From positions 1-40,985 of the IMG/VR virus record IMGVR_UViG_2563366942_000017: a DNA stretch of 40,985 nucleotides; one strand, given 5' to 3'. Of the stretch, positions 3,338-35,960 are shown piece after piece. The position numbers and the translations under genes are program-made. The stretch is from a virus. Its lineage: Duplodnaviria > Heunggongvirae > Uroviricota > Caudoviricetes. Each line of letters begins with the position of its first letter. The stretch's first letter is position 1. The notes beneath the pieces were generated by a model. The model saw only the letters and a program-made list of their open reading frames with translations, did no database searches and was not told the origin of the DNA.

Positions 3338-6187
3338 TTACTTATTTTTTTCCATTGGTTCAGCCTTATTGAGTTGTTCCTTAAGCTTATTCCATGCTGA
3401 ATCCTCAGGCATCTGTACTCGCACAGAAACGAACTGATTAGCAGGAATGTCGATCGGGTCACCGTTCGAAACACCAGGGATGTCGTTACGTGCAAAAACT
3501 GGCGAGTTATCATGAGTGCGGTGAAACGTTTTCACCAACACAGAGCCATCTTGGTTAACAACATAATCCAGCCAGATGAGCGGCTGCTTGTTTCGGTCCT
3601 GCGGTATTTCAAATCCACCATCAATCCCCCCCCATGAAGCATCTGCATTCAGACCTACGCAACCCTCAATCAGATATTCCCCCAATGCCAGCCGTGTGAC
3701 GGTTACCCCATCTGATTCGCGATTTGTTTCACTACTACCGTCTGAGAAAATCTTCACAACCGGAGAGGCTTTTTTGATGAAACCACTTGAATCGACGGTC
3801 GTGTTCAGCGACGACCATGCCTCAGCCCAGCCTGTGTTACCTGCGCGAATAGCATCGTCTGCGTAGCGGAAGAACAGTTTTGATGTTGTGGACATGAATA
3901 TCTGCAACACACGGTTTTTTGCATATCCTGACTCCCATAATGCTCCGTTACCTGTTCCTTCTGGCTGCCAGTTTGTCACCCCACCTGCAGCTCCTACACT
4001 TACACCAGTAGACCAGTCTCCAGCAAATTCTGGAAGATTTAGTGAGTTAGGTGAGCGAATTGATACATCAACCAGACCAGGGGATCCGAGAATCGACATG
4101 CTGCGGGAGGACACCTTAGTAAAAGAGTTGTACCCGCCGTTTTTGGAAATCCTTCCTGTATAATTATTAGCCCTGTTAGTTCCATTAACTGTAATTTCCC
4201 AGGTATCGCCGTTGATGAAGTCGATCTGCAATAGGCAGAATGCTGGCAGCGTCATCTGTCCTGGCGCAGATGGCCCACCTTCAAACAGTGGCATATCCTG
4301 TTCAAGATATGTCACATATCTACCTGCATCTGTATTCCGCAAATAGTCACAAATAGCCTGTGCCGATGTAAATAGCGCAATACCATCAGCCGGGTTTACA
4401 GGGTGACGGCCAGCGTTAATCACCCTTCCGCGAGGGTTAAATAACTGTGATGAGGCATTGGATAGCGGAGTCATGTCTACTGTTCCAGGTTCATTAGATG
4501 GACAGTTAGCGCGAATGATGTTTAAAGTCCTATAATTTGATCCGCCCCCATTGTCATAGCGAATAGACTGTAGAAGATACAATTCCTCAGAGCCAGAAAT
4601 ATCACAAGACTGCACCCCCTCATTTTCAGTGGAGTAAACACTCTTCCCTGAATAACTATCCCAGTATGTTTTGAAATCTGCAGGTGACAGCAGGTACTGA
4701 CCTAATTCTGAACCATTAAGGCTGTACTCAATATAACCCTGCAACCCTGCGAAAGTATTTCCAGATCCCGCCGTGGTAGATGCACCAATACCAGCAAATA
4801 TCCGTTGAGAACCAAGAGCGACACCCTGCCGTTTTGGTTTACCGGCTCCGCGACCTCCAACATTTGCATCAACCGTAATAGTCCCCATTGGACTGTAAGA
4901 TCCTTCTATAAGGCTGTTAATATCCAGTGTGTTAAAGATATTGGATACACCTGTCTCAACATCAAAAATTTTCGGCCAACCCATATCCGCATTTTCGTAT
5001 ATCAGGGTATTACCAAAGCCACTAAACTGATATCGCACTCCAAGGCGTGTTGATTCAGTGAAGTTTGTAATCTGCGTTTTATCAACCAGCGTACGCGGAT
5101 CTTCGATAGGGTAAATTCTGATAGTGCGAGATGGGCTGTACGGCAGCAGGATGTAACGCTGTCCTGCCACTCGGTAAACGTGGATGCCTTCTGGTGCACC
5201 AACGTTATTCGGAAAATGAAGACGTGTTACCAATGCTCCTGTTACCCAGTCATGCACCGTAACCCATACCGATGCGGGGTCTAGCGTCTGCCAGCCGATG
5301 TATACCATTCCATCATTGCTGTCTATGTAAATCCCCTGAAATCCCATGGTCGTGTAACCATACTGATCTTTAAGATCTGCGGTAATCTCATCGTCTATGA
5401 TGCTGAATTCTAATTTCCAGTTCAGCGGCCTACGCGTACCACTGACATGCCTGGAAATATGAGACAGGTAGCTTTTTTTCCCTCCGGCCAAAATGTAACG
5501 CGAGGTTATTTCTGTCACTATGCCGACTGCAGCAGGAGTAACACGATAAACAGCCCCATTAATCCTGACAAAGTTTGAAATGGTTTTTATCTCATACCCG
5601 ACAGACATGTCCAAGCGAGAGCTGTCATATTTGCCATTAGCGAGATCTGTAACATACATTGCGTTGTCGATGTTATCAGGCCTAACTACCCCACTATATA
5701 AGTCTTGCACATATTTTTTTGTTACAGCATCCTGAGAGTTCTTCGGATCGGCCAAATTGGAAATTCTGTTTTGCTTTGCATCGTAATATTTTGCAAGCAA
5801 AGATGGTTTCATCAATGCACGTCTGAACCACCCAAAACATCGCTGGATCAGCATCGTCAGGTAGTCAAATGCATCTTCATGAACTTCGGGGAAAAATTTT
5901 CCCTGATTGCGAAGATCAGTCTCCTGCACCACATCAAGCACACGCTCTATCGTGATTCGCCAGCCAGCAGCAAGCGGCGACGGAAGAACCACTGCACCGC
6001 CACTATAAGTTCCCGCCCCTGTTACTGTATAACCAGCATCCAGCACTAGTTCTGTTACGTTACCGTTAAGGTCAGACACCTGAACAACCAGGTCGGATTT
6101 TTTGAAAATACGGAAGGTATACGGAAATGATGTCGTAACGCCGTTACCTGTGTATTCGTTGTGGTCAACTTCGGTTGAGACCGTCAT
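3338..6187 (-). CDS. Tailspike / tail fibre protein with T7-gp17-like N-terminal adaptor domain
   Basis: N-terminus MTVSTEVDHNEYTGNGVTTSFPYTFRIF matches the conserved podovirus tail-fibre N-terminal domain; 949 aa Gly/Ser/Thr/Asn-rich beta-structure-like body consistent with receptor-binding or depolymerase domain. Confidence 0.75.
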   Translation of the reverse strand: MTVSTEVDHNEYTGNGVTTSFPYTFRIFKKSDLVVQVSDLNGNVTELVLDAGYTVTGAGTYSGGAVVLPSPLAAGWRITIERVLDVVQETDLRNQGKFFPEVHEDAFDYLTMLIQRCFGWFRRALMKPSLLAKYYDAKQNRISNLADPKNSQDAVTKKYVQDLYSGVVRPDNIDNAMYVTDLANGKYDSSRLDMSVGYEIKTISNFVRINGAVYRVTPAAVGIVTEITSRYILAGGKKSYLSHISRHVSGTRRPLNWKLEFSIIDDEITADLKDQYGYTTMGFQGIYIDSNDGMVYIGWQTLDPASVWVTVHDWVTGALVTRLHFPNNVGAPEGIHVYRVAGQRYILLPYSPSRTIRIYPIEDPRTLVDKTQITNFTESTRLGVRYQFSGFGNTLIYENADMGWPKIFDVETGVSNIFNTLDINSLIEGSYSPMGTITVDANVGGRGAGKPKRQGVALGSQRIFAGIGASTTAGSGNTFAGLQGYIEYSLNGSELGQYLLSPADFKTYWDSYSGKSVYSTENEGVQSCDISGSEELYLLQSIRYDNGGGSNYRTLNIIRANCPSNEPGTVDMTPLSNASSQLFNPRGRVINAGRHPVNPADGIALFTSAQAICDYLRNTDAGRYVTYLEQDMPLFEGGPSAPGQMTLPAFCLLQIDFINGDTWEITVNGTNRANNYTGRISKNGGYNSFTKVSSRSMSILGSPGLVDVSIRSPNSLNLPEFAGDWSTGVSVGAAGGVTNWQPEGTGNGALWESGYAKNRVLQIFMSTTSKLFFRYADDAIRAGNTGWAEAWSSLNTTVDSSGFIKKASPVVKIFSDGSSETNRESDGVTVTRLALGEYLIEGCVGLNADASWGGIDGGFEIPQDRNKQPLIWLDYVVNQDGSVLVKTFHRTHDNSPVFARNDIPGVSNGDPIDIPANQFVSVRVQMPEDSAWNKLKEQLNKAEPMEKNK

Positions 6188-6272
6188 GTTAAATCTCCAG
6201 ATAGTCGCAGCACCCGTTGCGCCGCATATCTGGTTATTCTATTACCTGAAAAACCACATATGGATAGAAAGA

Positions 6273-6288
6273 CTGTGAATATGAACAG
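6273..6288. promoter_or_regulatory. LexA (SOS) box 1, CTGT-N8-ACAG
   Basis: CTGTgaatatgaACAG matches SOS-box core CTGT-N8-ACAG with AT-rich spacer; lies in promoter region upstream of gene 6383. Confidence 0.55.
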
Positions 6289-6291
6289 ATA

Positions 6292-6306
6292 TTACCTTTC
6301 GGGTAA
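6292..6306. promoter_or_regulatory. Operator palindrome TTACC-N5-GGTAA (site A1)
   Basis: ATTACCtttcgGGTAAT, perfect 17-bp palindrome, member of recurring family. Confidence 0.6.
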
Positions 6307-6345
6307 TTTGCAAAACGTGCTGGATAGCAAACAAATTATTTGATA

Positions 6346-6361
6346 CTGTATATTTATACAG
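6346..6361. promoter_or_regulatory. LexA (SOS) box 2, CTGT-N8-ACAG
   Basis: aCTGTatatttatACAGtt, near-consensus SOS box about 20 nt upstream of the SD of gene 6383. Confidence 0.65.
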
Positions 6362-6382
6362 TTATTGCATGGAGAAGATAAG

Positions 6383-6640
6383 ATGCAGCAGTATCACTAT
6401 CCACTGGAAGACGGATTTACCGAAAGGATTCACACGCCGGGAGGCGTCAGGTCACTGGTGGAGGGATCGCACTTGATGAAATTACTCCGGGATCTCGATA
6501 AGGATGGATTTAATGTCGATGGCCCACTTGCCGAACTGACTGCACTGATTAACTACGTCACCAGCTCACAGATGTCTATGCAGGATCTGCAAACACATCT
6601 CGACTATTGTGCCGAACAATTACGAAAGCAAACCAGATAA
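6383..6640 (+). CDS. Small antirepressor-like protein (standalone homolog of the C-terminal module of the two Ant proteins)
   Basis: SD GGAGAAG before ATG 6383; 85 aa; aligns to the last ~75 aa of ORFs 6953..7639 and 8813..9751 (shared IHxPxGV, LM.LL, DG..V.G..AELT, QTH..Y); preceded by two LexA boxes. Confidence 0.5.
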   Translation: MQQYHYPLEDGFTERIHTPGGVRSLVEGSHLMKLLRDLDKDGFNVDGPLAELTALINYVTSSQMSMQDLQTHLDYCAEQLRKQTR

Positions 6641-6671
6641 GGTTTGCAATTACCAAGCGGAGTGCTTATAT

Positions 6672-6686
6672 TTACCTTTGCGGTAA
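6672..6686. promoter_or_regulatory. Operator palindrome TTACC-N5-GGTAA (site A2)
   Basis: TTTACCtttgcGGTAAA between gene 6383 and the Bro-N antirepressor gene. Confidence 0.55.
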
Positions 6687-6780
6687 ATTTACATCGCACT
6701 CCTCTTGTGCCATAGTAATCGGGTACTGGCAAAATCCAGTGCCGGGATTGGCGTCCCGAGTTACTACAGAGGCACATATG

Positions 6781-6800
6781 CCGCATAAGCGGTTTTTTTA
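6781..6800 (+). terminator. Rho-independent terminator
   Basis: CCGCataaGCGG hairpin followed by TTTTTTT. Confidence 0.5.
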
Positions 6801-6952
6801 TGTGTAAAGCGCACCTATTCTATGGTGGGCTGTGTGGGGGCACCGAAAGGTGCGCCGGGTCCTTTGTAGCCGGTTACGCCAACCCTGCACAGTTCACCAC
6901 CAACCGATTGGCGTCGGTAGTGGTGATTAACCTAACTACAAAGGTGATCACT

Positions 6953-7639
6953 ATGACTGCTAACGTAACCCCATCTGTTTTTCATTTTGAATCAGAAGCA
7001 ACCATTCGAGCCATTGTTATTGATGGAAATCCTTGGTTTGTTGCCAAAGACGTTATTAAAGCTCTTCAACTGACAAACCCCACTATGTCAATAAAATCTC
7101 TTGATGATGATGAAAGGGCTAAATTTAACTTAGGCCGTCAAGGTGAAACCAATATTATCAACGAGTCAGGCCTCTACACACTGATCCTCCGCTGCCGCGA
7201 CGCAGTGACACCAGGCACTATCCCCTACCGCTTTCGTAAATGGGTTACAGGTGAGGTTCTTCCTCAGATCCGCCGCACCGGAAGTTACATAAAAAACTCG
7301 CTCCCGCAAGAAGAACGCATAAAGATGGTTGCCGACCAGGTAGCCAACGCCACGGCGTCAGCAGTAATGCAGGCGATGAAGATAGAGAACAAAACCTACA
7401 GTGCCCCACTGAAGCCCGGCTACCGTAGCCTGATTCATTCTCCGTCTGGTGTTCTCGGCCTGACGGAAAACTCACTGCTGATGAATCTGCTGAACCAGTT
7501 ACAGGAAGACGGGCACGACGTATCGGGCGCGGCGGCGGAGCTGACCACCATGTTCTGCTACATCGTCGGTGTGAGCAAATGCCTGCGTGATATCCAGACC
7601 CACGCGGAGTACATCAACGACAAGGCAGGGTTCTTCTGA
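6953..7639 (+). CDS. Antirepressor with Bro-N-like N-terminal domain
   Basis: SD AAGGTGA before ATG 6953; N-terminal IDGNPWFVAKDV motif typical of Bro-N/Ant N-terminal domain; C-terminal 77 aa identical to that of ORF 8813..9751; upstream ORF extension is treated as 5' leader. Confidence 0.65.
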   Translation: MTANVTPSVFHFESEATIRAIVIDGNPWFVAKDVIKALQLTNPTMSIKSLDDDERAKFNLGRQGETNIINESGLYTLILRCRDAVTPGTIPYRFRKWVTGEVLPQIRRTGSYIKNSLPQEERIKMVADQVANATASAVMQAMKIENKTYSAPLKPGYRSLIHSPSGVLGLTENSLLMNLLNQLQEDGHDVSGAAAELTTMFCYIVGVSKCLRDIQTHAEYINDKAGFF

Positions 7640-7665
7640 CGGCGGCGGCACAGGGACGTGCCTTT
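7395..7665. repeat. Inverted repeat arm 1 (3' end of Bro-N antirepressor gene plus ~25 bp)
   Basis: Reverse-complement match to 8787..9057; encodes identical 77-aa C-terminus; DNA differs at several synonymous positions; boundaries approximate. Confidence 0.6.
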
Positions 7666-7682
7666 AAATAATTCTGTACAGA

Positions 7683-7711
7683 TTGCAGACTGTGGGTGAA
7701 TAGCGTACTAT
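7683..7711 (+). promoter_or_regulatory. Sigma70-like promoter TTGCAG-17-TACTAT
   Basis: -35 TTGCAG, 17-nt spacer, -10 TACTAT; operator B starts at the last T of the -10. Confidence 0.45.
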
Positions 7712-7725
7712 TACCTCAAGGGTAA
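7711..7725. promoter_or_regulatory. Operator palindrome TTACC-N5-GGTAA (site B)
   Basis: TTACCtcaagGGTAA overlapping the predicted transcription start of the 7786/7940 cassette. Confidence 0.6.
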
Positions 7726-7785: not shown

Positions 7786-7965
7786 ATGCGAAACGAAAAA
7801 TTGCAGATGCGTAGAGCGCAAGCTGCCGCAAGACGTTCTTTCAATGGAAGCGTAGAGTACGTAAAAGTTACTATGACAAAAGATCACGCAAGTCGCGTAT
7901 CCCGCGCTTTCTTTGATTCTCGTAACAATAAGGAAAATTATGAGTTCGTCTGCGTCGCAGAATGA
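7786..7965 (+). CDS. Small basic protein (59 aa), candidate antitoxin/regulator partner
   Basis: Not in ORF track (<60 aa); ATG 7786 with SD GAGGTAA 6 nt upstream; overlaps downstream gene start by 26 nt (translational coupling). Confidence 0.35.
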   Translation: MRNEKLQMRRAQAAARRSFNGSVEYVKVTMTKDHASRVSRAFFDSRNNKENYEFVCVAE

Positions 7966-8485
7966 TAAAAATCAAATTGTCAGATATAAGGGTCGAGTAT
8001 TGCATACGCAAAATTTCTCGGCCCTTTGTGCATCTGATCTTGAGCTGAAGAAAGTATCTGATGCCTTTACCCAGTATTGGAAAACGGGATACCATCCATC
8101 TCTTGGTAAAGATGCTGCATTTGCTCGTCCGACAGAAATGCTTAAACTAAATGTCAGGCATACTCATGTCGATAACCAAGACTATATTCCAGAAGATAGT
8201 GATAAAAAACACACTGGTAAAAAATCATCTTGGGATGCATGGAAAAATATAGCGTCTGTGCAAGTAAAATGCATACCAACAAGTGATTGCTTTTTAGTTT
8301 ATTCGGTAAATCACAATCGTGATGCGCTGGTTATGTTTTTTGTTGACGCAGATGCCCACAACATAACTGAGCAAGAAGAGTTTAAAGAGGCAGCAATCAC
8401 TATCAGTTATCAATTCTTTGAGAAAACAAAAACAGAACCAATGCCTTTAGAAGAAGATCTTTTTTCTGATAAATGGAAGGAATAA
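7940..8485 (+). CDS. YafO-family toxin-like protein (candidate toxin or abortive-infection effector)
   Basis: SD AAGGA before ATG 7940; segments DAFTQYWKTGYHPSLGKDA, VRHTHVDN and CFLVYSVNHNRDALVMFFVD resemble E. coli YafO motifs (recalled from memory, no search run); AT-rich codon usage; strong terminator follows. Confidence 0.45.
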   Translation: MSSSASQNDKNQIVRYKGRVLHTQNFSALCASDLELKKVSDAFTQYWKTGYHPSLGKDAAFARPTEMLKLNVRHTHVDNQDYIPEDSDKKHTGKKSSWDAWKNIASVQVKCIPTSDCFLVYSVNHNRDALVMFFVDADAHNITEQEEFKEAAITISYQFFEKTKTEPMPLEEDLFSDKWKE

Positions 8486-8506: not shown

Positions 8507-8578
8507 GTGGACGAAACAAAAGTCAGTGCTACACTCATTGACGCCACATCGAGGTGGCTTATAGATGGAAATTTCACA

Positions 8579-8740
8579 ATGAAAAAAGCATTTGCTGCAC
8601 TGTTCGTTTTGTTGTCTCTGGTAGCTTCAACTCAGGCCTTTGCCGGTCGTTGTCAGCACGACAGCGATACTGCCGCTGACGGCTCCCGCTGCGGTGGGCG
8701 TTCTGCGGATTCCCGCCCGGGCGGCGGTGGCATTCGTTAA
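8579..8740 (+). CDS. Small secreted peptide candidate (signal peptide plus ~30 aa Gly/Arg/Cys-containing mature part)
   Basis: MKKAFAALFVLLSLVASTQAFA looks like a Sec signal peptide with AFA cleavage site; weak SD; GC-rich. Confidence 0.3.
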   Translation: MKKAFAALFVLLSLVASTQAFAGRCQHDSDTAADGSRCGGRSADSRPGGGGIR

Positions 8741-8786: not shown

Positions 8787-9057
8787 TTGCACGTCCCTGT
8801 GCCGCCGTTCTGTCAGAAGAACCCTGCTTTGTCGTTGATGTATTCCGCGTGCGTCTGGATATCACGCAGGCATTTGCTCACACCGACGATGTAGCAGAAC
8901 ATGGTGGTCAGCTCCGCCGCCGCGCCCGATACATCGTGCCCGTCTTCCTGTAACTGGTTCAGCAGATTCATCAGCAGTGAGTTCTCCGTCAGGCCGAGAA
9001 CACCCGACGGCGAATGAATCAGACTGCGGTAGCCTGGCTTCAATGGATAACCATAAC
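8787..9057. repeat. Inverted repeat arm 2 (3' end of second antirepressor gene plus ~25 bp)
   Basis: Reverse-complement match to 7395..7665; boundaries approximate. Confidence 0.6.
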
Positions 9058-9751
9058 ATTTTGTCTGTGTTTTAATTGCCTCACGAAGCGCATCTAACAT
9101 CTTGACTGCCACTTCATCATTCTCTGATGCAGATCCAGCAGGGAGATACTCCCCTTCAAGCGGAACCCGAGCAACAAGAGACAACGCTTCGGCAAATTGA
9201 TCTTCACCAATTTCTTTGTACGAACAGCCAAAATGAGATTTCAGTGACGACCACATGGTGATCATCGCCTTAGCCTGTTTTTCTTTTGGCAGAGACTGAC
9301 CGCGACTCATGACGAGTTGTTTAATGGCTTCCTGCTGTTCAGTTGTTATTTTACCCGGCAACGCCTTTTTAGCTTTGCGTGGGTTAACCACATGGCCTTT
9401 AGTCCAGTACTCGTAGAGCACATCGTCACACTCTTCCTGATACTGGATTACCTTGTCGCGGATTTCAGGGCGGACTTTGTTAGGGCTGATGCTGTTCAAC
9501 CAAGCTGCCAATTTTCGTAAAGCCATACAAATCATGGCTTGCACCCCACCGGCAGAAGGTATGGTGATTTCCACCATACCCTTCGAGAAGCGTTGAGAAA
9601 TCTTCTTATGTTGAGATTTCCAGTCTAGCCCCATTCCCTCAACGATAGGTTTCATTGGGGTATACGGTTCGCCGTTGTGATTGACAACATAAAGCTCTGC
9701 GCCGTGGAATGGCACGTTGATAGTAGATACTGCTGTTGCTATACTCGTCAT
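8813..9751 (-). CDS. Antirepressor (Ant-like), distinct N-terminal domain, shared C-terminal module
   Basis: N-terminal NVPFHGAELYVVNHNGEPYTPMKPIVEGMGLDW resembles antirepressor N-domains; C-terminal 77 aa identical to ORF 6953..7639; sits downstream of Arc-like gene as in P22 arc-ant. Confidence 0.65.
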   Translation of the reverse strand: MTSIATAVSTINVPFHGAELYVVNHNGEPYTPMKPIVEGMGLDWKSQHKKISQRFSKGMVEITIPSAGGVQAMICMALRKLAAWLNSISPNKVRPEIRDKVIQYQEECDDVLYEYWTKGHVVNPRKAKKALPGKITTEQQEAIKQLVMSRGQSLPKEKQAKAMITMWSSLKSHFGCSYKEIGEDQFAEALSLVARVPLEGEYLPAGSASENDEVAVKMLDALREAIKTQTKCYGYPLKPGYRSLIHSPSGVLGLTENSLLMNLLNQLQEDGHDVSGAAAELTTMFCYIVGVSKCLRDIQTHAEYINDKAGFF

Positions 9752-9823
9752 GTCGTTAATTCCTATACGTAGTTTTACGATACTGAAGCCCTGACGGTCT
9801 GGCCACCGTGGGGCTTCGCTGTT

Positions 9824-9991
9824 TTATGCCACGCTATTCTTCTCACCAGTGAGTCCATACACTTTCCTCAGCTGATAGATAATCTCTGTATTGAACTTTC
9901 GGCATTCTTTTTCGCCATTTCTTTCAATAGCTAACTTCACATCGTCCGGAAAACGAACTCGTCGTTGACACATCTCTTTTGCTTTTTGCAT
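9824..9991 (-). CDS. Arc-like ribbon-helix-helix repressor
   Basis: SD AGGAG before ATG 9989-9991; 55 aa; RVRFPDDVKLAIERNGEKECRKFNTEIIYQL fits Arc/Mnt RHH pattern (beta-strand then two helices). Confidence 0.55.
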   Translation of the reverse strand: MQKAKEMCQRRVRFPDDVKLAIERNGEKECRKFNTEIIYQLRKVYGLTGEKNSVA

Positions 9992-10006
9992 TTCATATCT
10001 CCTTAG

Positions 10007-10065
10007 CCCCACCGTGGGGCAAAATAATTGTCACACCGTGCGTCATTGATGTCAAGCACACGGTG
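10007..10065. promoter_or_regulatory. immI-like operator/promoter region with CACCGTG palindromes
   Basis: GCCCCAC-C-GTGGGGC palindrome at 10007-10020, CACCGTG at 10034-10040 and its inverse CACGGTG at 10059-10065; a related GGCCACCGTGGGGC lies at 9801-9814 between arc-like and ant. Confidence 0.45.
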
Positions 10066-10111
10066 AGGCATACTTCAATCATTGCAAGTAACTCAATATT
10101 TGGTGAAGAAC

Positions 10112-10543
10112 ATGAGCAGAGAAGATCCACAACTAAGGATCAGACTTCCCGTCGAAGTAAAAGAAAAAATAGAAATTTCTGCAAAAGCCAATAAGCGATC
10201 AATGAACGCTGAAATAGTACAACGTCTTGACACCAGCTTTCTGAAAGATATTCATGAAGATGACGTAATTTCTGCTTATGAAGCAAAAATCATTGCAAAC
10301 AATGCACGACATGAAATATCAAATATTATTTTCAAAAGAACCTTTAATGAAATTAATAAGAAAATAACACTTGGACATACAAGTTTTTATATAAACCTTA
10401 ATGACCTTGAACTGGAATCACTTGCAGATAATGATTACCAGATCATCTTTGAAAAAACATTTAATAAGCTCAATGAACTAGGTTACATCATCTGTGAAAA
10501 CTCATGGGATGCAGATGGTTTTGGAATTGAAATACCTGAATAG
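10112..10543 (+). CDS. Mnt-like RHH DNA-binding protein with ~95-aa C-terminal extension
   Basis: N-terminus RIRLPVEVKEKIEISAKANKRSMNAEIVQRL matches Mnt/Arc RHH motif; divergent from arc-like gene; ORF track start is TTG, internal ATG 10112 preferred. Confidence 0.55.
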   Translation: MSREDPQLRIRLPVEVKEKIEISAKANKRSMNAEIVQRLDTSFLKDIHEDDVISAYEAKIIANNARHEISNIIFKRTFNEINKKITLGHTSFYINLNDLELESLADNDYQIIFEKTFNKLNELGYIICENSWDADGFGIEIPE

Positions 10544-22212: not shown

Positions 22213-22263
22213 CTTCTTTCTCCATTAGTGGGTCTGTTACGACCCACAGGTTAATAACAGGCG

Positions 22264-26245: not shown

Positions 26246-26260
26246 ATTACCTTTCAGGTA
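26246..26260. promoter_or_regulatory. Operator palindrome TTACC-N5-GGTAA (site C)
   Basis: ATTACCtttcaGGTAAG; a TTGACA hexamer lies 17 nt upstream on plus strand. Confidence 0.5.
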
Positions 26261-26582
26261 AGTAAAGGGTTCATTCCGGTTACTAACCTGACTGGCTTGT
26301 CGTTAAATTGAACAGGTGGAGTGAGCTTTTATTTTGAGCAGTACGGCGTATGGCACATGCGCCGATAGCGGTCTGGATACGTTTAAGGGGCACCCTCCCT
26401 TGCTCGGGCAAACGAACCAGGTAGCCGGAATGTGCAAGTCGAGCGGTTTTATTCCGCGCACGGGGATTCACCATCCCGGCGATTCGGTGTGACGCCTCGG
26501 AAGAGACGAGGGTACAACGATGAGAGCATTTATGGAGCCGCGACAAAGTGTGGCGCCTTAACAGGCTAAGTGCTCTCAGCGT

Positions 26583-26659
26583 TGTGGCATTAGCTCAGTT
26601 GGACAGAGCAACCGCCTTCTAAGCGGTTGGTCGCAGGTTCGAATCCTGCATGCCACGCC
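26583..26659 (+). tRNA. tRNA-Arg (anticodon UCU), phage-encoded
   Basis: 77 nt; acceptor stem GTGGCAT/ATGCCAC, D-arm AGCTCAGTTGGACAGAGC, anticodon loop CTTCTAA (UCU), T-arm GCAGGTTCGAATCCTGC, discriminator G, encoded CCA. Confidence 0.85.
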
Positions 26660-26858
26660 AGAATCACGCCTAAGGACCGTGATGCCAGAAGTTCCAGGGG
26701 CTTGGCGGTGATGGTTTCCCTTGAAGGGCTATCACCGCCCTTTTTACAGCAGGACGCCATTGCGATGACTTCATGCTGTAAACCAGTACAGCCACGGAAG
26801 GCATAACTCATTGCTTCCAGTTCGACCGGTTCGCCGGGCATTTTTTTAAGGTGAGATC

Positions 26859-28799: not shown

Positions 28800-29392
28800 T
28801 GATTGCCATCCTGACGTTCTTTCAGTCTCTTCCTGGCTGCCGCTATGCGATCAGCAATTGTCACATTCACATTAACATCCAGGCGTTCTTTGAACGCGTT
28901 GACATCAACATGCTTACCAATCAGCTCAAGGTTCTTCACCTTGTCAGGCCATTTAATTTTTTTGAGGATTGTCTCTATTGAATCCTCGTTCATGTTCATG
29001 ATGGTCGATGACAGATCAAAGCCACTAAGCGTAGTGCGCCAGATTTTCGGCCACTCACGGATTGGTTTAAGGCTCCCATCGTCGTTGAGGATGTCGATCA
29101 CGTCCATCTGGTCGATCTCCACCAGGCGCATGAGAACGTAATCAGCACTGACACGCATTCGTTTGTTGCGCTCCTCCATCAACTCGGCAATCCGTTTTTG
29201 AATGCGTTCATCGCGCATCATGACACTGGCTTTAACTGCCGCTGTATTTGGGGAGAATCCTGCGTTAATCGCTGCCTGAGTCTGGTTTTCAGGCGTTTTG
29301 ATGTATGACTGGCAATAAGCCTCCTGCATTGCTGTTAGTGGCTTAAATTGCGTTGATTTGCGTTTATAGGTTTTAGGTTCAGCAGGCATCAT
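28796..29392 (-). CDS. Terminase small subunit
   Basis: About 199 aa from internal ATG 29392 (ORF-track N-terminal extension is Thr-rich and spans operator repeats); basic helical protein upstream of large subunit. Confidence 0.6.
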   Translation of the reverse strand: MMPAEPKTYKRKSTQFKPLTAMQEAYCQSYIKTPENQTQAAINAGFSPNTAAVKASVMMRDERIQKRIAELMEERNKRMRVSADYVLMRLVEIDQMDVIDILNDDGSLKPIREWPKIWRTTLSGFDLSSTIMNMNEDSIETILKKIKWPDKVKNLELIGKHVDVNAFKERLDVNVNVTIADRIAAARKRLKERQDGNQ

Positions 29393-34856: not shown

Positions 34857-35087
34857 TCATGAGTAGAAGAAGTATGCCAGTTCTGCTTTTGAGCGCAGCC
34901 ATTGTCTTGATTTACAGGCTTTAAAAAGCCCATCCATCAATACCTTACCTGGCATTTTGCGCTTACCTGTTAAGTGAGTCTGGATATAGTGACTCGTCGT
35001 TCCGGCTTCCTGTGCGAAGGCTTCACGCTCATCCGGAGTAAGTGCAAGCCAGTGCTTTTTGAAATCGAAATGTCCGTTATCGCTCAT
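34857..35087 (-). CDS. Cro-like HTH regulator
   Basis: 76 aa, first gene of rightward-equivalent early operon, divergent from repressor; HTH-like segment TSHYIQTHLTGKRKMPGKVL. Confidence 0.5.
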   Translation of the reverse strand: MSDNGHFDFKKHWLALTPDEREAFAQEAGTTSHYIQTHLTGKRKMPGKVLMDGLFKACKSRQWLRSKAELAYFFYS

Positions 35088-35123: not shown

Positions 35124-35186
35124 TCACCCATAAGGTAACAAAAATCAAGGATAGTTACCTATGGGGTGCATTTACCTGTTGGGTAA
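35124..35186. promoter_or_regulatory. OR-like switch region with three operator sites
   Basis: TCACCcataaGGTAA (35124-35138), TTACCtatggGGTGC (35155-35169), TTACCtgttgGGTAA (35172-35186) between divergent cro-like and repressor genes. Confidence 0.6.
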
Positions 35187-35241: not shown

Positions 35242-35826
35242 ATGAAAAGTATCCAGGACGTCCGCAGGCAAAATCTCAACGACTTGATCGACCGTGAATT
35301 CAATGGTGTTCAGACGCGGATGGCTGAAAAACTTGGAACTCAGGCAAATCTGGTAAACCGCTGGGCTCTTGGCAAGAAGGTTATCGGCGACCAGGTTGCG
35401 CGAAAAATTGAAGCTGCCGCCAATAAACCCCGTAACTGGCTTGATATCGATCGCTCGCTTTCTCAGGAAGGTTTTCAGCCTGTCGGACCAAGCGACATTG
35501 GTCAACTGGCGGCTCACAACCTGGAACGCTGGATGAGCGAAAGCCGCGACCTTTCAACGCAGGGAAAACTTCACCGCGCATCCGGCGTCGCCCAGGTAAC
35601 AATCAGCCGCCTGTTAAACAATGAGGTCAGCGTTTCCATTTCCACCCTGGAGAATGTTGCATCCGCATTTGGGCGTCACGGATATGAATTACTGATTCAC
35701 CCGCACGACCCCGCGACTATCAACTATGACCGCTCGCGCTACGCATTGTTACCTGAAACAGAGAAGGCAAAGATCGAAAGTTACATTGAATTTGTCATCA
35801 ACCAGAACGAAAAAAACAAACAATAA
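35242..35826 (+). CDS. Prophage repressor candidate (two HTH regions, no peptidase S24 domain)
   Basis: N-terminal CI-type HTH (QTRMAEKLGTQANLVNRWALGKK) and a second XRE-like HTH (LHRASGVAQVTISRLLNNE); divergent from cro-like; flanked by operator clusters; no Ser-Lys autocleavage motif. Confidence 0.55.
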   Translation: MKSIQDVRRQNLNDLIDREFNGVQTRMAEKLGTQANLVNRWALGKKVIGDQVARKIEAAANKPRNWLDIDRSLSQEGFQPVGPSDIGQLAAHNLERWMSESRDLSTQGKLHRASGVAQVTISRLLNNEVSVSISTLENVASAFGRHGYELLIHPHDPATINYDRSRYALLPETEKAKIESYIEFVINQNEKNKQ

Positions 35827-35883: not shown

Positions 35884-35960
35884 TTACCTAACGGGTAATT
35901 TTTTTAACTCATATCTATTGACATCAAACCAGATACGCATAATTATTACCTCAACGGTAA
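35884..35960. promoter_or_regulatory. OL-like promoter/operator region (sites G1, G2)
   Basis: ATTACCtaacgGGTAAT (35884-35898); TTGACA at 35918-35923; ATTACCtcaacGGTAAC (35946-35960) overlapping -10/+1. Confidence 0.6.

Follow-up and report, generated by a model that had tools for sequence, protein, structure and literature searches.

The window, by which we mean the whole stretch of 40,985 nucleotides of viral DNA that was analysed, is, by its closest relatives, a phiV10/ε15-like (Uetakevirus) prophage of E. coli. Its positions 6100-6800 share 94-98% identity with phiV10-like podophages of E. coli and 77-79% with the ε15/SPN1S-like phages of Salmonella, all of the genus Uetakevirus. In this region a small gene, ant, which encodes a putative antirepressor, is divergent from the tailspike gene, as it is in SPC32H, ε15 and phiV10 (Table 1). 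The gene for the phage repressor, rep, lies 29 kb from ant, which is far from the immunity region. The locus is present in 531 of 5426 complete E. coli genomes (~10%), and RefSeq labels the gene 'hypothetical protein'.

Table 1. Features of the ant and rep regions, with positions in the window.
Feature	Position	Strand	Remarks
Tailspike gene	3338-6187	minus	
Distal LexA-like palindrome	6271-6290		GACTGTGAATATGAACAGAT; probably non-functional
Candidate Rep operator	6291-6307		ATTACC-N5-GGTAAT; palindrome TTACCTTTCGGGTAA at 6292-6306
Predicted ant promoter	6321-6349	plus	-35 TGGATA 6321-6326, 17-bp spacer, -10 TACTGT 6344-6349
End of promoter spacer	6341-6342 (TG)	plus	spacer ends in TGA; assigned by conservation
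Proximal LexA box	6344-6363		TACTGTATATTTATACAGTT; core CTGT-N8-ACAG 6346-6361
Shine-Dalgarno GGAG of ant	6371-6374	plus	8 nt before ATG 6383; invariant in alignment
ant, 85-aa antirepressor	6383-6640	plus	ATG 6383; homology to SPC32H Ant
Promoter-like TTGCAA-17-TATATT	6644-6672		overlapped by exact Rep operator 6672-6686
isrK-like RNA	6723-6799		Rfam 70.5 bits; ends in terminator 6780-6799
C4-antisense-like RNA	6818-6904		Rfam 79.5 bits
Bro-N Ant	6953-7639		6953 probable start, 7639 stop
P22_AR_N Ant, 312 aa	8813-9751	minus	P22-type immI module 8813-10543
sar-like antisense RNA	9753-9820	plus	Rfam 44.8 bits
Arc-like RHH ORF, 62 aa	9824-10012	minus	
Mnt-like ORF	10082-10543	plus	divergent
cro-like gene	34857-35087	minus	divergent from rep
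Operators between cro-like gene and rep	35124-35186		35124 (1 mismatch), 35155 (2 mismatches), 35172 (exact)
rep, 194-aa repressor	35242-35826	plus	two HTH-type domains, no S24 peptidase
Two exact operators, 62 bp apart	35884-35960		flank rightward TTGACA-17-AATTAT promoter downstream of rep

Two sets of related loci were compared with the window. IMG/VR holds 80 loci whose Ant is at least 99% identical; 74 of these, together with four others including the window and phiV10, make up 78 close loci that were compared upstream of ant. The second set consists of 14 divergent homologues from about ten genera, with Ant identity down to 59%, and includes the phages SPC32H, ε15, Tyrion and Klebsiella phages as well as prophages of Citrobacter, Kluyvera, Scandinavium and Buttiauxella. 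A scan of species-representative genomes gave nine loci, of which the eight enterobacterial ones were used; the locus left out, from a Clostridiaceae MAG, has 38% identity over 32 residues. Among the 78 near-identical prophages the 195-bp region between the tailspike gene and ant is near-invariant outside a patch at 6268-6288. A separate block at 6234-6266, between the tailspike start and the operator, reads TTCTATTACC...AAACC..ATATG.AT in all eight aligned phages and holds an ATTACC operator half-site and a possible minus-strand TAGAAT -10 hexamer for the tailspike gene.

Repressor and antirepressor

Ant is 88% identical to the product of an SPC32H gene annotated 'ant: anti-repressor protein', with a length equal within one residue, and it matches chain E ('Anti-repressor protein') of PDB entry 5D50 at the same identity (E 4e-47). 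It also matches phrog_450. No Pfam or NCBIfam family is assigned to it, a sub-threshold Pfam match to DUF724 being treated as spurious, and Pfam detects no P22_AR_N, Bro-N or DinI domain in it. A preliminary description of this DNA had proposed that the 85-residue protein is homologous to the C-terminal module shared by two large Ant proteins of the window, and the alignment with the 312-aa P22_AR_N Ant bears this out (42% identity over 76 aa, E 3e-16).

Rep aligns over residues 1-190 with chain A ('Repressor') of the same PDB entry (E 4e-42), and by sequence Ant and Rep are orthologous to the crystallised SPC32H pair. The same description had read 35242-35826 as an HTH repressor without an S24 motif, in agreement with the domain content found here: the Pfam matches of Rep are HTH_3 and HTH_26 only, with no Peptidase_S24 (PF00717) match at E <= 0.1, and tblastn with LexA and lambda CI queries retrieved no S24-like segment from the window.

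Rep has diverged far more than Ant. It shares 42% identity with the ε15 repressor and ~45% with SPC32H Rep, as against 84-88% for Ant and its counterparts in these two phages. The C-terminal domain of Rep mediates both tetramerisation and Ant binding (PMC9986798), and given the divergence of Rep we assume, for the window, that the Ant-Rep interface has been retained. The same divergence would fit a scenario in which the small Ant acts on the repressors of other prophages, or in some other way, and not on the resident Rep; antirepressors of the Gifsy phages do act on non-cognate repressors (PMC3121763). However, Ant and this type of Rep always occur together, the Ant module is confined to Uetakevirus-type records among 50,697 phage records, and the full-length Rep fold with both domains is conserved, as are the operator half-sites. 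Such cross-talk thus appears very improbable as the function of Ant, and an action on the resident Rep is the reading that we pursue below.

A LexA box at the ant promoter

The motif CTGT-N8-ACAG occurs four times in the window, versus 0.59 expected. Two occurrences, at 6273-6288 and 6346-6361, had been described as SOS boxes in front of ant, and scoring of both against a LexA matrix had been proposed as a check. We scored sites by the heterology index (HI) in the Berg-von Hippel form as used by Lewis et al., trained on 18 E. coli LexA sites taken from Table 4 of PMC3009722, which themselves range from 1.8 to 12.2. While both motifs are present, the scores divide them, and only the proximal one stands as a LexA box. 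Its 20-mer has an HI of 1.95, on par with umuD and sbmC, and matches TACTGTATATATATACAGTA at 18 of 20 positions; no site with an HI of 5 or less was found in 200 random windows. Its CTGT and ACAG half-sites are invariant in the 78 close loci, and all 14 divergent loci keep a LexA box, exactly one each, ~41 bp before the ATG. By strength, conservation and position, the proximal site is the single credible LexA box at ant. The CTGT-N8-ACAG matches at 22234 (HI 22.5) and 26776 (HI 14.3) have no relevant promoter near and were set aside as chance occurrences.

Over a 6.2-kb segment, SPC32H and SPC32N differ by two bases only, one in the tailspike gene and the other changing ACAG to AAAG in the box orthologous to window 6346-6361; this C-to-A change maps to the C at window position 6359. 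In 2013 Kim and Ryu reportedly described SPC32N as a lytic variant separated from SPC32H by two nucleotide changes, one of which, in a LexA site overlapping the ant promoter, makes Ant constitutive. The difference seen in the box matches this reported link between mutation of the LexA box and constitutive Ant.

We infer from the sequence that the ant promoter is of the extended -10 type and that the LexA 20-mer opens with its -10 hexamer, in which case LexA would cover about -13 to +7. A generic sigma-70 promoter scan did not flag it. All 14 divergent loci keep TGG-N3, the 17-bp spacer, TGn and the TA of TACTGT, and the sequence between these elements varies. Two other candidates for the ant promoter, TTGATA-17-TATTGC and TTGCAA-17-ACAAAT, were rejected as their -10 hexamers are not conserved.

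In five loci from Klebsiella, Superficieibacter and Kluyvera, ATGT takes the place of CTGT in the left half of the LexA box, with an HI of 8.1-12.5. The change turns the -10 hexamer of this clade into TATATG (the box lies about 40 bp before ant), as if promoter strength were being traded against LexA affinity.

The distal LexA-like palindrome

The distal 20-mer scores an HI of 13.4, worse than all 18 training sites, the worst of which is polB (12.2), and the part of the preliminary description that counted it as a second SOS box does not hold up. Sites of this quality are within chance expectation: random 41-kb sequences contain on average 0.55 of them at an HI of 13 or less and 1.0 at 14 or less. 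Both half-sites are complete in two of the 78 close loci, the window and one other; in the remaining 76 the HI is at least 16.3. The window allele is a single T-to-C change away from the commonest allele, GACTGTGAATATGAATAGAT (...GAATAG). The site is absent in phiV10, and no second LexA box is found in any of the 14 divergent relatives, SPC32H, ε15, Tyrion and the Klebsiella phages among them. A further candidate for the ant promoter, TTACCT-17-TAGAAA, would be overlapped by the distal box; it was rejected as a poor match that the promoter scan had passed over.

It is possible that both boxes are functional, with two LexA dimers flanking the Rep operator for a tighter or cooperative SOS control of ant. 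Each site is an exact CTGT-N8-ACAG match, and their centres are 73 bp apart, or ~7 helical turns, which would place them on the same face of the helix. A site with an HI of 13.4 or less within 100 bp of a true box is also improbable by position (the distal box lies 57 bp from the proximal one; probability ~0.003 under whole-window composition), and polB, a real SOS gene, has a similarly weak site. However, its predicted place at about -86 to -67 puts the distal site beyond the core promoter, and cooperation of LexA over about 70 bp is not known. Moreover, it falls in a 16-bp patch that is the most polymorphic stretch of the intergenic region in the close loci, as expected of sequence not under purifying selection. 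Because the site is weak, polymorphic and without a counterpart in divergent relatives, a chance, unselected match is the better explanation: control by two boxes seems to us improbable, and the distal motif is most probably a non-functional match created by a SNP.

Polymorphism is concentrated in the patch at 6268-6288, which adjoins the Rep operator on its left and occurs in at least three haplotype families among the 78 near-identical prophages. In the ε15 record a predicted IHF site is annotated at the equivalent position.

The Rep operator upstream of ant

The palindrome between the two motifs, designated operator A1 in the preliminary description, is indeed present and belongs to a series: TTACC-N5-GGTAA has ten exact copies in the window and none in 100 shuffles. 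The sites are concentrated around rep, and others stand before further transcription units. One exact copy (26247-26261) and the weak CTGT-N8-ACAG match at 26776-26791 (HI 14.3) lie near a tRNA gene (26584-26657; Rfam 73.3 bits). At ant, eight phages share the same operator half-sites but differ in the central 5 bp; in the 78 close loci the left half-site is invariant and the right one varies at a single position (GGTAA/GGTGA). An exact operator stands 50-52 bp upstream of the LexA box in 13 of the 14 divergent loci, with a near-match only in Buttiauxella. The GenBank record of ε15 annotates eight such sites as repressor-binding, including one, 'protein_bind repressor', upstream of gp19, the Ant orthologue. 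From the conserved half-sites, the variable centre and the fixed spacing, the ant operator is predicted to be functional.

The ant operator is centred near -57 from the predicted start site, upstream of the -35 hexamer. At -10/+1, where a second operator is found in early promoters, the ant promoter has the LexA box. In the pair at 35884-35960 one operator lies upstream of the -35 hexamer and one over the -10, and the ant promoter has the upstream type only; in the divergent region between the cro-like gene and rep, a leftward promoter-like site (35141-35113) overlaps the operator at 35124. We consider the odds about even that Rep feeds into the ant promoter through the upstream operator. Dual control of ant by LexA and the phage repressor, which had been claimed beforehand, is plausible in view of the conserved operator ~57 bp upstream of the predicted start site, and repression, activation and the anchoring of a Rep tetramer are each a candidate for its action. 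If the operator represses ant, Rep would hold down its own antagonist, creating a double-negative feedback loop and a self-reinforcing induction.

A less likely but by no means negligible scenario is that the operator does not repress ant, and perhaps serves the divergent tailspike/late unit, acts as a distant partner in a Rep tetramer or is a class-I-like activator site. In the last case, with Rep activating the ant promoter from a class-I-like position, ant would be expressible in lysogens only. The location of the operator, near -57 without overlap of the -35, the -10 or the start site, fits such a role, whereas the operators presumed to block RNA polymerase overlap -10 or -35 elements (6672, 35124, 35946). 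In the 2013 work of Kim and Ryu, loss of the LexA box alone was reportedly enough for constitutive Ant in SPC32N, so that Rep at the ant operator could not by itself keep the promoter off during infection. Against a non-repressing role, the spacing of 50-52 bp to the LexA box and promoter is fixed across genera while the sequence on the tailspike side diverges, and the promoter scan found no minus-strand promoter-like site in the intergenic region. In addition, the operator at 35884 lies similarly far upstream of a rightward early promoter, where it presumably serves repression as one of two operators bound by a tetramer.

Two large antirepressors beside ant

Immediately after ant, at 6641-7639, comes a second antirepressor operon. 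No terminator was predicted between the ant stop codon and 6780, and SOS-induced transcripts may therefore read into this Bro-N Ant operon. The C-terminal 83 residues of the two large Ants are 100% identical to each other (8813-9064 and 7391-7639) and 42% identical to the small Ant, and they keep ~60% of the positions at which the small-Ant family does not vary. Of the 50,697 phage records searched by tblastn, only the 34 Uetakevirus-type records that also have the small Ant contain this module. This confinement to records with this type of Rep suggests that the C-terminal module of the large Ants may bind Rep as well.

It is therefore tempting, if speculative, to propose that one Rep-binding module is used three times under three sensors: as Ant itself under LexA, as a Bro-N fusion (6953-7639) that may be governed by a Rep-operated promoter with isrK-like and C4-like RNAs, and as a P22_AR_N fusion (8813-9751) that may be under Mnt/Arc/sar-type control. 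We would rate this proposal as distinctly tentative. If all three proteins converged on the same Rep, SOS and two RNA- or protein-gated inputs would be joined in one switch, and Rep, by way of its operators at 6292 and 6672, would exert feedback on at least two of their promoters.

With their 3' ends, the large ant genes form an inverted repeat of ~290 bp (7371-7661 and 8789-9081) whose arms are 90% complementary, extended by a perfect 19-mer just outside the stop codons. The arms enclose a cassette of 1.1 kb, in which there are a YafO-toxin-like gene (7913-8485; Pfam 1.2e-5), a 77-aa ORF (8507-8740) and an exact Rep operator (7711-7725). If the arms recombined, the cassette would be inverted and both large ant genes left undamaged. 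In phiV10 the Bro-N Ant copy is split into two ORFs.

Discussion

The window very probably carries a lysis-lysogeny switch of the SPC32H type, in which LexA silences ant and Ant disables a non-cleavable Rep. In a lysogen, host LexA would occupy the near-consensus box at 6344-6363, which spans the predicted -10 hexamer and start site, and would thus keep ant silent. Upon DNA damage RecA would be activated and LexA would cleave itself; the 85-residue Ant would then be made and bind the non-cleavable Rep; Rep would then leave its TTACC-N5-GGTAA operators and the lytic genes would be expressed. For the window we infer LexA binding, Ant-Rep binding and SOS dependence from the SPC32H literature, in which the self-cleavage of LexA is followed by production of Ant, an inhibitor that acts on the repressor by protein-protein contact (PMC7380047), and Rep binds DNA as a tetramer that a tetrameric Ant breaks by binding two Rep dimers (PMC9638917). 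The preliminary description had likewise pointed to induction through a LexA-controlled antirepressor acting on a repressor without self-cleavage; what supports it here is orthology to SPC32H and not analogy. With such a switch, these prophages should be SOS-inducible without cleavage of their repressor.

Mechanism, protein family and LexA site have all been published before, as has the structure of the complex. The value of the present analysis is thus one of annotation and not of discovery: ant can confidently be named an SPC32H-type LexA-controlled antirepressor gene.

Antirepressors of other kinds offer instructive comparisons. Modules like P22 immI (mnt-arc-sar-ant) and the isrK/c4-type ant operons of P1 and Gifsy both occur in the window beside the small ant, yet the P22/P1-type Ants are large proteins with Bro-N or P22_AR_N N-terminal domains that are controlled by antisense RNAs or by Mnt/Arc, and not by LexA; indeed, no LexA-like site with an HI of 14 or less lies near the large ant genes of the window. 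The induction of Gifsy-type phages and of coliphage 186 through Tum had been suggested as models for ant, and this is apt for function but not for kinship, as the family is that of the SPC32H/ε15 Ant. The abstract of the SPC32H article in the Journal of Virology is said to describe the SPC32H class as structurally distinct from the Gifsy antirepressors. Gifsy-1 and Gifsy-3 are lambdoid siphoviruses with another repressor family, and their GfoA and GfhA compare with Ant in regulatory logic: they are small antirepressors encoded outside the immunity region, under direct LexA control, with repressors that do not undergo cleavage (Lemire et al., 2011; PMC3121763).

Coliphage 186, a myovirus of the P2 group, follows the same logic, in that a LexA-repressed antirepressor, Tum, inactivates a non-cleavable CI. 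The annotated layout of its experimentally studied p95 promoter is that predicted for ant in the window, with a -10 TACTGT made up of the first six nucleotides of the LexA site. The proteins, however, belong elsewhere: Tum has 146 residues and is annotated as DinI-like, CI is of another repressor family, and Ant and Tum are not similar in sequence (BLASTP, E 0.061). The LexA box of 186 p95, TACTGTATGTTTATACAGTA (29044-29063 of that phage), is identical to the ε15 ant box at 20 of 20 positions, though the antirepressors are unrelated.

The closest relative remains the Rep-Ant-LexA switch of SPC32H (Uetakevirus; Kim and Ryu, 2013, J Virol; Kim et al., 2016, PNAS; PDB 5D4Z/5D50), whose Ant is orthologous to that of the window and whose Rep is homologous over its full length. 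In both, ant is divergent from the tailspike gene and preceded by a single strong LexA box 20-40 bp before the ATG, by a TTACC-N5-GGTAA operator about 52 bp upstream of that box and by the same promoter elements. The window differs from SPC32H in its E. coli host, in the ~45% identity of its Rep and in the extra distal LexA-like match, which is weak and not conserved; it differs from both SPC32H and ε15 in its two added large Ant genes with the paralogous C-terminal module. Every defining feature of the SPC32H/ε15 Ant-Rep family that can be tested on sequence is present at the locus.
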